Program-made: the position numbers and the translations under genes
The notes under the pieces: generated by a model
Database searches by the model: none
Seen by the model: only the letters and a program-made list of their open reading frames with translations
Told to the model about the DNA's origin: nothing
Shown: piece after piece, positions 23,677 to 24,716 of the stretch
How the letters are laid out: every line of letters starts with the position of its first letter
How positions within the stretch are numbered: position 1 is the first letter of the stretch
Virus record (IMG/VR): IMGVR_UViG_3300011339_000381
Location: 1 to 29,792 of that record
Length of the DNA: 29,792 nucleotides
Strand: one strand, 5' to 3'
From: a virus
Lineage: Duplodnaviria > Caudoviricetes

Positions 23677-24216
23677 ATGCATTATACTTGGACAAAATGT
23701 AGCACCGCCGACAGCGGAGACTTAATGGCACTTAGCCTAATGGTTGAGTTCGAAGTCAATAAAATATTCAACTTTAATCCTAATGTTCTAGCACATAACA
23801 TCGTGTTAGGCTTGGTAAATCAATTTTATACTGGCAGTAGTGATCTTATCTGTGGCGTTAGAGACAAAGATAATAAACTAATGGCTTATACATGGGCTAA
23901 GACCGGAGAACAAACCATATGGAGCACCGAACAAGTCATGAGCATCCGCATGGCGCATGTTGATCCTACACTTAGTTCACGCACACGCATAAAATTACTA
24001 GAGGATATGTTAGATATTTGGACTCGTTTCGCACAACTAACTAACACACCTGTTATTGCCAGTAGCACATTACGCAATGAGCAACAGGCATTTCTAAAAC
24101 TACACCAACGACGCGGTTATATCATTAAAGGTAGCACCGCATACTTAAGAGTAGACTTATCACATAAGCCTACTACGCTATTTGATAACCCGACACAAGC
24201 CACTCCTGCCAATTAG
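23677..24216 (+). CDS. GNAT-family acetyltransferase-like protein; the only credible plus-strand gene
   Basis: Start re-assigned to ATG 23677 (SD GAAAGGA); GNAT-like order LMAYTWA...MAHVDPTLSSRTR...AFLKLHQRRGY. Confidence 0.7.
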   Translation: MHYTWTKCSTADSGDLMALSLMVEFEVNKIFNFNPNVLAHNIVLGLVNQFYTGSSDLICGVRDKDNKLMAYTWAKTGEQTIWSTEQVMSIRMAHVDPTLSSRTRIKLLEDMLDIWTRFAQLTNTPVIASSTLRNEQQAFLKLHQRRGYIIKGSTAYLRVDLSHKPTTLFDNPTQATPAN

Positions 24217-24280
24217 TTGATACCTAGAGTAGAAACAGGCAAAATAACTCTAGTTCTTGATGGGGTTCCGACCTGTTAAC
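24150..24280 (-). ncRNA. Candidate pseudoknotted RNA 3' of dps, antisense to the GNAT 3' end
   Basis: Four nested or crossing helices plus an 11-bp hairpin; several G-U pairs form only on the minus strand. Confidence 0.5.
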
Positions 24281-24281
24281 T

Positions 24282-24716
24282 TTAATCTTCTAATGTAGAT
24301 TTCAACATCCATATGAACTTAGCCAATGCTAAGATTCTATCCTGGGCGTAATTGGCAATCTCTTTATGTTCTTCTTCATCTGCTACTGTCATCAGTTCTT
24401 CATAGCAGTCTTTTAATGTTACTAAGTCATCATAGACTCTGCTTAACAATACATCAGCCTTACCTTCAATGATATCAGTGGTAATCTCACTGGTATCTAA
24501 TACACCATATATGTCACAGGGCATGAACTCATCTATACTGCGTAGTAATTCACCTATAACATCAATTTGATCTTGTAAATCTTCGTAGATACCGCCAAGC
24601 AATGTGTGATCACTTTGGAAATTGCGTCCCACTATGTTTACATGTGCTACATGGCTGCGAAAATACGCAACAAAGTTATCGTTGAATACTTGTGTTAGTT
24701 GTAATGCTGTGGTCAT
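24282..24716 (-). CDS. dps: Dps/ferritin-like protein
   Basis: HVAHVNIVGRNFQSDH...YE...DVIGE matches the Dps signature H..HWN..G..F...H...Y......D..AE; C-terminal KFIWMLKS. Confidence 0.9.
   Translation of the reverse strand: MTTALQLTQVFNDNFVAYFRSHVAHVNIVGRNFQSDHTLLGGIYEDLQDQIDVIGELLRSIDEFMPCDIYGVLDTSEITTDIIEGKADVLLSRVYDDLVTLKDCYEELMTVADEEEHKEIANYAQDRILALAKFIWMLKSTLED

Follow-up and report, generated by a model that had tools for sequence, protein, structure and literature searches.

What is the short stretch of DNA that separates a phage dps gene from its convergent neighbour, and what might it be doing there? The window, that is, the whole stretch of 29,792 nucleotides analysed here, is a virus record of 29.8 kb whose genes include a terminase and SU10-type portal and capsid genes. 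Its main genes are encoded on the minus strand. The stop codon of a dps/ferritin-like gene (24282–24716, minus strand; PF00210, E = 3.9e-9; phrog_3636, E = 3.5e-24) ends one base before a 94-base sequence (24187–24280, minus strand), into which the last 10 codons of a convergent, GNAT-like ORF (23677–24216, plus strand) run in antisense, an overlap of 30 nt. A sequence-only reading had proposed that a new, doubly pseudoknotted RNA lies here, either ribozyme-like, nuclease-resistant or regulating in antisense. Below we argue that the 94 bases are predicted to form a conserved RNA with a double-pseudoknot fold, and that covariation together with a score of 34 bits on RF02496 points to a phage form of the At1 family that lacks the outer closing stem, P0.

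Homologues support a double-pseudoknot fold

Taken on its own, the window says little about structure. The minimum free energy of the element has a z-score of 0.44 (128 of 200 shuffles fold equally well), single-sequence folding of both strands does no better than shuffles, and four disjoint helices of 8, 7, 7 and 5 bp, the set from which the sequence-only reading had built its fold, are allowed by 139 of 1000 dinucleotide shuffles. Single-sequence evidence for the fold is not beyond chance; it is the homologues that decide.

A pattern scan of viral contigs listed at least 119 loci, with about 240 stretches estimated. On an alignment of 89 distinct phage sequences, including the window and loci found through their flanking proteins, the fold described below pairs 94.7% of cells compared with 66.8% after shuffling, where the counts for the first pseudoknot, PK1, are biased because the filter demanded PK1 pairing. 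For a held-out test, a model built from the nested helices only was run on 100 of the at least 120 metagenome loci recovered with a PK1-free pattern, yielding 64 hits, 63 of them distinct and all picked without pseudoknot information. Across these 63 copies, which are not wholly independent (some samples are common to the collections, and the model itself fitted the nested helices), 98.4% of cells pair versus 73.5% in shuffles and 34–50% in slid controls.

Read 5' to 3' on the minus strand, the helices follow the order PK1, P1a, P1b, P2, PK1', P2', P3, PK2, P3', PK2', P1b', P1a'. Two pseudoknots are backed by covariation. PK1 joins 7 nt of the 5' leader (24271–24277) to 24240–24234 within the U-rich loop of P2; 99.5% of its cells are paired in the held-out sequences, with compensatory change in six of the seven pairs, and at all 16 element-bearing dps loci the five bases that follow the 5' YAA pair fully with five U-rich loop bases. 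PK2 comprises just 2 bp, between 24216–24215 in the P3 loop and 24204–24203 (24203–24216 overall), and crosses P3; both pairs show compensatory change and are 100% paired. P1a (24263–24267 with 24191–24187), P1b (24256–24259 with 24199–24196) and the P2 hairpin (24224–24253, 16-nt loop) are compensatory at every pair (5/5, 4/4 and 6/6, respectively). P3 (24208–24223) consists of G24223–C24208, a 2-nt bulge and then 24220–24219 with 24210–24209. It is 97.7% paired in the held-out set, where the G–C pair is A–U in 2 of 63 and only one pair is compensatory; covariation is weak here, and P3 appears largely conserved.

Parts of the earlier fold survive this comparison. Its strands occur on the minus strand where they had been placed and are complementary as described, AUCAA does recur three times, and two of its helices, equivalent to P1a and P2, covary at every pair among homologues. 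The remaining two, which joined 24276–24269 to 24202–24195 and 24244–24238 to 24210–24204, fare no better than chance: 60.0% of their cells are paired against 60.5% when shuffled, a score that is reached by 450 of 500 shuffles. The 5' strand of the first of these actually pairs with 24240–24234 in the P2 loop. The call of a doubly pseudoknotted RNA was therefore right in the number of pseudoknots and wrong in topology, the 7-bp PK1 having been missed, as had P1b. Similarly, the minus strand was chosen correctly but not for the right reason, the general presence of G–U pairs, since it is the alternation between G–C and G–U in P1b that fixes the strand. What is left of the second rejected helix, UUU (24243–24241) opposite AGR (24207–24205), is compatible in 63 of 63 held-out copies, varies on one side only, and has U at the R position in At1. 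As for an 11-bp hairpin (24150–24174, minus strand) that had been appended to the RNA, it lies outside it, inside the GNAT-like coding sequence, and is formed by just 4 of 14 sequences, those of the window and the three relatives nearest to it, all of which are at least 94% identical in protein.

Among the 89 phage copies there are 36 different PK1 cores, and the junction bases are invariant; every helix-length stretch of the RNA is paired intramolecularly. Judged from these alignments, the conserved feature is a shape and not a seed, in that helices change freely and junctions are fixed. Elements that are otherwise near-identical can carry a wholly different PK1, as seen when the window (24277–24271) is set against L001/L014, L004 and L005. 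The L014 element is closer to that of L002 than to the window's, a pattern suggestive of swapping between phages.

The RNA is optional at the dps/GNAT-like junction

Searches with the flanking proteins returned 13 viral loci for the GNAT-like protein and 39 for Dps, two sets that overlap and include near-duplicates. The element is present at 10 of the former and 16 of the latter, leaving 3 and 23 loci, respectively, without it; where it is missing, dps usually ends directly against the next gene. On a dps tree of 61 rows, of which 39 have the RNA (a number inflated by pattern hits) and 22 do not, at least 12 changes are required, five of them forced by well-supported branches. The two most distant rows both carry the RNA, and gain and loss are indistinguishable. 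The RNA is thus optional, and dispensable, at this junction. Two loci (L037, L043) lack the GNAT-like gene along with the RNA, and dps there runs straight up to its next same-strand neighbour. At another (L078), a 319-aa gene sits between dps and the RNA, which then follows the stop of that gene.

The name GNAT is a lead only. The ORF itself has no Pfam or PHROG hit; one homologue (L061) hits the acetyltransferase family phrog_1249, and ESM Atlas neighbours include GNAT clusters. The protein model has a pLDDT of 82.5, and the best sequence hit to a solved structure has an E-value of 0.053. Within a block of minus-strand genes, the ORF is the only clear one on the plus strand. The C-terminal tail of its product, which varies in length among homologues, reads the RNA in antisense and is seen again in distant homologues whose genes overlap the RNA. 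Elsewhere in the window, a protein of 370 aa that matches nothing in Pfam or PHROG (728–1840) lies near an HNH-like ORF with PHROG hits (23–379). Three blastn queries gave no real match among cultured phages, and among capsid relatives from a named host the nearest share only 26–29% identity, too little to assign a host.

A divergent phage variant of a catalogued family

No Rfam family reaches gathering level within the window, in agreement with the earlier remark that the topology does not match HDV, pistol, hammerhead or fluoride RNAs. The RNA had also been called new, and in this respect the proposal does not stand. RF02496 (Atu_At1) matches the window over its full length (model positions 1–108) with 34 bits and E-values of 4.5e-4 and 1.1e-5 in two runs, a significant match that is seen in none of 14 control genomes but falls below the gathering threshold of 60 bits. 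Seven other phage loci score between 39.9 and 91.2 bits, three of them above the cut-off, and all 13 bacterial loci tested, from a PK1-filtered set, score 68–111 bits. Because phage copies bridge the gap to the bacterial scores, we place the window, by score, at the far end of a continuum, as a divergent phage variant of RF02496 rather than a threshold member. The core helices P1a, P1b, P2 and P3 and the invariant loop motifs are present in the window; the outer stem P0 and a stress promoter of its own are absent.

The family's namesake, At1 (pAT_55271R), is encoded on the At plasmid of Agrobacterium fabrum C58, 51 nt before ligD, and its 5' end lies 10–13 nt before the fold. It has the same order of P1a, P1b, P2 with a U-rich loop of 15–16 nt, and P3, shares the invariant motifs with the window and also has PK1. 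The nested consensus that cmscan prints for RF02496, a printout silent on any pseudoknots in the curated Rfam entry, draws a small 5' hairpin where covariation backs the 7-bp PK1. Unlike At1, the copy in the window has neither P0 nor an RpoE2-type promoter; it follows a stop codon, and its P3 contains a 2-nt bulge. At1 was described as 113 nt by sequencing and 115 on a blot, strongest at high density (PMC3384568), and as 118 nt by RACE and ~140 nt on a blot, with RPKM levels of 45 (log phase), 866 (stationary phase) and 3597 (AB medium) (PMC3738593).

At1-related sequence is found on 199 plasmid records, many of which are Ti plasmids. Ti2 of pTiC58 (173670–173783; L294:2171–2284, also L295:2004–2104) reaches 80.5 bits with RF02496 and 41.5 bits with our own model, by which we take it to be a paralogue of At1, and partial hits like that of Ti2 occur on many Ti plasmids. 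Ti2 keeps P0, P1, P2 and PK1; it differs from At1 in a remodelled 3' module (P3/PK2), in control through a vir box and in heading the atu6155-virK transcript. Ti2 is the most abundant Ti-plasmid transcript, depends on VirA/VirG and exceeds its downstream mRNA by far (PMC3384568). The literature searched gave no function or pseudoknot for At1 and no link from At1 to Ti2 or to phages, and the text on Ti2 in PMC3384568 makes no such connection between the two RNAs either.

A scan of bacterial genomes listed at least 120 loci (about 210 estimated), mostly in Rhizobiales, and 95 matches passed the PK1 filter. Within the order around one Rhizobium, the RNA is present in 9 of 101 genomes (33 candidates scored per genome); a scan of 151 genomes from the order to which a Caenimonas bin belongs, run without a positive control, found no copy. 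Full copies outside Alphaproteobacteria come from a Gracilibacteria bin (L244, upstream of an aspartyl-tRNA-synthetase-like gene) and a Bacteroidetes bin (L278), where bin contamination is possible. In the case of L205 and L221, a contig labelled Bacillus subtilis has a copy that, like its neighbours, is nearly identical to that of Pseudochrobactrum, likely a mislabelled or contaminated assembly.

Phage stop codons versus bacterial promoters

Phage and bacterial copies are found in different surroundings. On viral contigs, 73 of 88 copies begin from -8 to +2 relative to the stop of an open frame that is 60 or more codons long, compared with 3.4% at random positions. The same is true of 37 of 51 metagenomic copies and of 4 of 62 bacterial ones. 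Viral copies usually face a convergent gene, with two (L068, L112) located between same-strand genes. The genes upstream fall into six or more unrelated kinds, including dps, lysozymes, a chitinase-type lysin, a spanin-like gene, ribonucleotide reductase and a tail adaptor, with dps and one spanin-like gene dominating. Closeness to stop codons may reflect nothing but compact phage genomes: most same-strand genes in the window lie within 40 nt of each other, packing so tight that a promoter would not fit between the gene and the RNA. A promoter scan around the element found 4 sites where 4.7 were expected.

The bacterial neighbours are likewise unrelated (ligD, Ku, gltX, PRC-barrel, DUF892 and others). 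A same-strand gene follows right behind the RNA in 33 of 89 bacterial copies, versus 22% at control positions, and none is called there in the other 56. The general-stress consensus of RpoE2/EcfG, GGAAC-N18/19-TT (PMC3738161), precedes 42 of the 62 bacterial copies with enough flank and 0 of 88 viral copies, while a looser pattern is found at 64 of 95 bacterial copies and in 12 of 2026 control windows. The mapped start of At1 lies 11 nt after a perfect GGAAC-N18-TT site (L293:2662–2811), and At1 is likely to be under a general-stress promoter. One fold is, on this evidence, placed under different controls, RpoE2/EcfG in bacteria and VirA/VirG in the case of Ti2 (PMC3384568). A closing stem, defined as a flank duplex of -6 kcal/mol or below, is present in all 62 bacterial copies, in 8 of the 73 viral copies next to a stop codon and in 10 of the remaining 15 viral ones, a comparison confounded by G+C content. 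In one Mesorhizobium bin (L236) the RNA lies between ligD and ku. We considered a specific link to Ku/LigD and rejected it: At1 and L236 have such neighbours, and the scan of 102 bacterial neighbour proteins turned up no others.

What might the RNA do?

Our preferred, if tentative, reading is that this is a stable RNA recognised by its shape and acting in trans on a host protein. In the phage, the 94 bases would likely be transcribed as the tail of the dps message and be left over as a stable product when that message decays; the leftover RNA would then probably bind and titrate a host protein through its shape, as a decoy. Nuclease resistance, which the sequence-only reading had also entertained, is plausible. 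Abundant accumulation at full length is known for the relatives At1 and Ti2 (PMC3384568, PMC3738593). In favour of a trans-acting RNA, it is shape and not a seed that is conserved, neighbours are unrelated and controls differ, At1 is found at full length, At1 and Ti2 are missing from a list of Hfq-enriched ncRNAs, and there is one copy per genome (in five of five virus records). Against it, the RNA is missing from 23 of 39 dps loci, and deletion of Ti2 left tumour formation unchanged, a result given in PMC3384568 as data not shown. No partner protein or co-occurring gene was found. In addition, both At1 and Ti2 lead longer transcripts that run on into ligD and atu6155-virK, which a role in cis would fit equally well. 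Ti2, with its changed 3' module, may work differently.

A role in cis could be that of an end protector, the leading alternative, if a somewhat unlikely one. Here the knot would block exonucleases and stabilise its own message, at the 3' end in phages and at the 5' end in bacteria, and free RNA would be leftover. The tie to same-strand stop codons in viral and metagenomic copies, the convergent gene that the RNA usually faces and the continuation of At1 and Ti2 into downstream genes are all as this model would have it. However, the many bacterial copies with no same-strand gene called behind them have nothing to protect, the two phage copies between same-strand genes are awkward, and a single fold would have to act at both ends. 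A ribozyme, self-cleaving or conditionally active, that severs the late transcript of the phage at the boundary between genes would also be compact, doubly pseudoknotted and rich in invariant junction bases, and small ribozymes typically resemble the element in size and place. Yet the helix order is unlike that of HDV-like ribozymes, the partner of the 5' strand here lying inside the P2 loop, and no ribozyme family (HDV-like, pistol, twister, hammerhead, hatchet) appears among the Rfam hits. Exoribonuclease-resistant RNAs (xrRNAs) and HDV-like ribozymes are, like the element, small double pseudoknots with the 5' end tied into the core; the element differs from them in helix order and has no Rfam hit to either. 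Furthermore, At1 and Ti2 are reported as single full-length species from a promoter, and At1 survives terminator exonuclease (PMC3384568, Table 2; PMC3738593, Table 4), which disfavours the ribozyme-like RNA suggested earlier and makes cleavage improbable. The accumulation of full-length At1 and the absence of At1 and Ti2, relatives rather than the phage copy itself, from the Hfq-enriched plasmid ncRNAs (Table S6 of PMC4201532) argue against self-cleavage and against antisense control alike.

Antisense control of the GNAT-like message, as originally proposed, or an Hfq-type sRNA with its seed in the U-rich loop is more doubtful still. The 30-nt overlap in the window invites such a model, and so does the fact that PK1 differs more than P2 in the 44 closest sequence pairs (1.16 versus 0.39 of 5 positions), as a specificity element might. 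But the overlap ranges from about 0 to 34 nt across loci and is not conserved, the RNA lies beside unrelated genes elsewhere and is itself missing from some loci that have the GNAT-like gene, the loop bases, where they vary, always stay matched to the 5' strand of the same molecule, and the excess of PK1 changes fades in more distant pairs (1.69 versus 1.27, then 2.13 versus 2.19), none of these pairs being independent. There is only a slim chance that we are dealing with a riboswitch-like ligand sensor that controls a downstream gene: a double pseudoknot can resemble a pocket, At1 and Ti2 occupy 5'-leader positions before ligD and atu6155-virK, and Ti2 RNA far exceeds its downstream mRNA (PMC3384568), but the genes downstream do not belong to a common pathway, most phage copies have a convergent gene as their neighbour, and no expression platform was seen. 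A selfish insertion element or a stop-codon readthrough signal, finally, seems far-fetched. Clean presence or absence at one junction and starts tied to stop codons would suit such readings; one copy per genome and no transposase among the scanned neighbours speak against the former, and we rejected the latter on variable stop-to-fold spacing (-8 to +2) and on the next stops, which come after 0–70 codons and after one codon in the window. We also rejected a tRNA-elbow mimic of the Y RNA kind, which would need an unpaired D-loop GG to touch a T-loop UUC, since the invariant GG fits P3 pairing and the element has no tRNA or Y RNA match in Rfam. There were 0 tRNA genes in 28 loci scanned, and one tRNA lies near the L262 copy.

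Implications

The family itself is catalogued (RF02496), and since 2012 At1 and Ti2 have stood as abundant orphan sRNAs. What is added here is a held-out covariation test of both pseudoknots, a stop-codon form without P0, optional presence at one junction, the link between Ti2 and At1, and the Hfq check. This connects At1 with Ti2, and both with numerous phage copies; the family gains a covariation-backed double-pseudoknot structure of which there are many natural variants, and At1 a likely general-stress promoter. The old question of what At1 and Ti2 do is now directly testable, in culturable rhizobia and in vitro with the 94-nt RNA.

Beyond the preferred reading of a stable, trans-acting RNA, one might imagine a broader scenario, which we regard as rather unlikely, in which mobile elements share an RNA tool: a single nuclease-resisting double-pseudoknot fold that neutralises a conserved host protein, either a ribonuclease or a defence effector, and whose changing 7-bp kissing helix sets specificity or oligomer identity. 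Its carriers would be freshwater phages, rhizobial plasmids and stress islands, and Ti plasmids, the latter in the form of VirG-induced Ti2. If true, this would define a new class of RNA decoy common to phage infection, general stress and T-DNA transfer.
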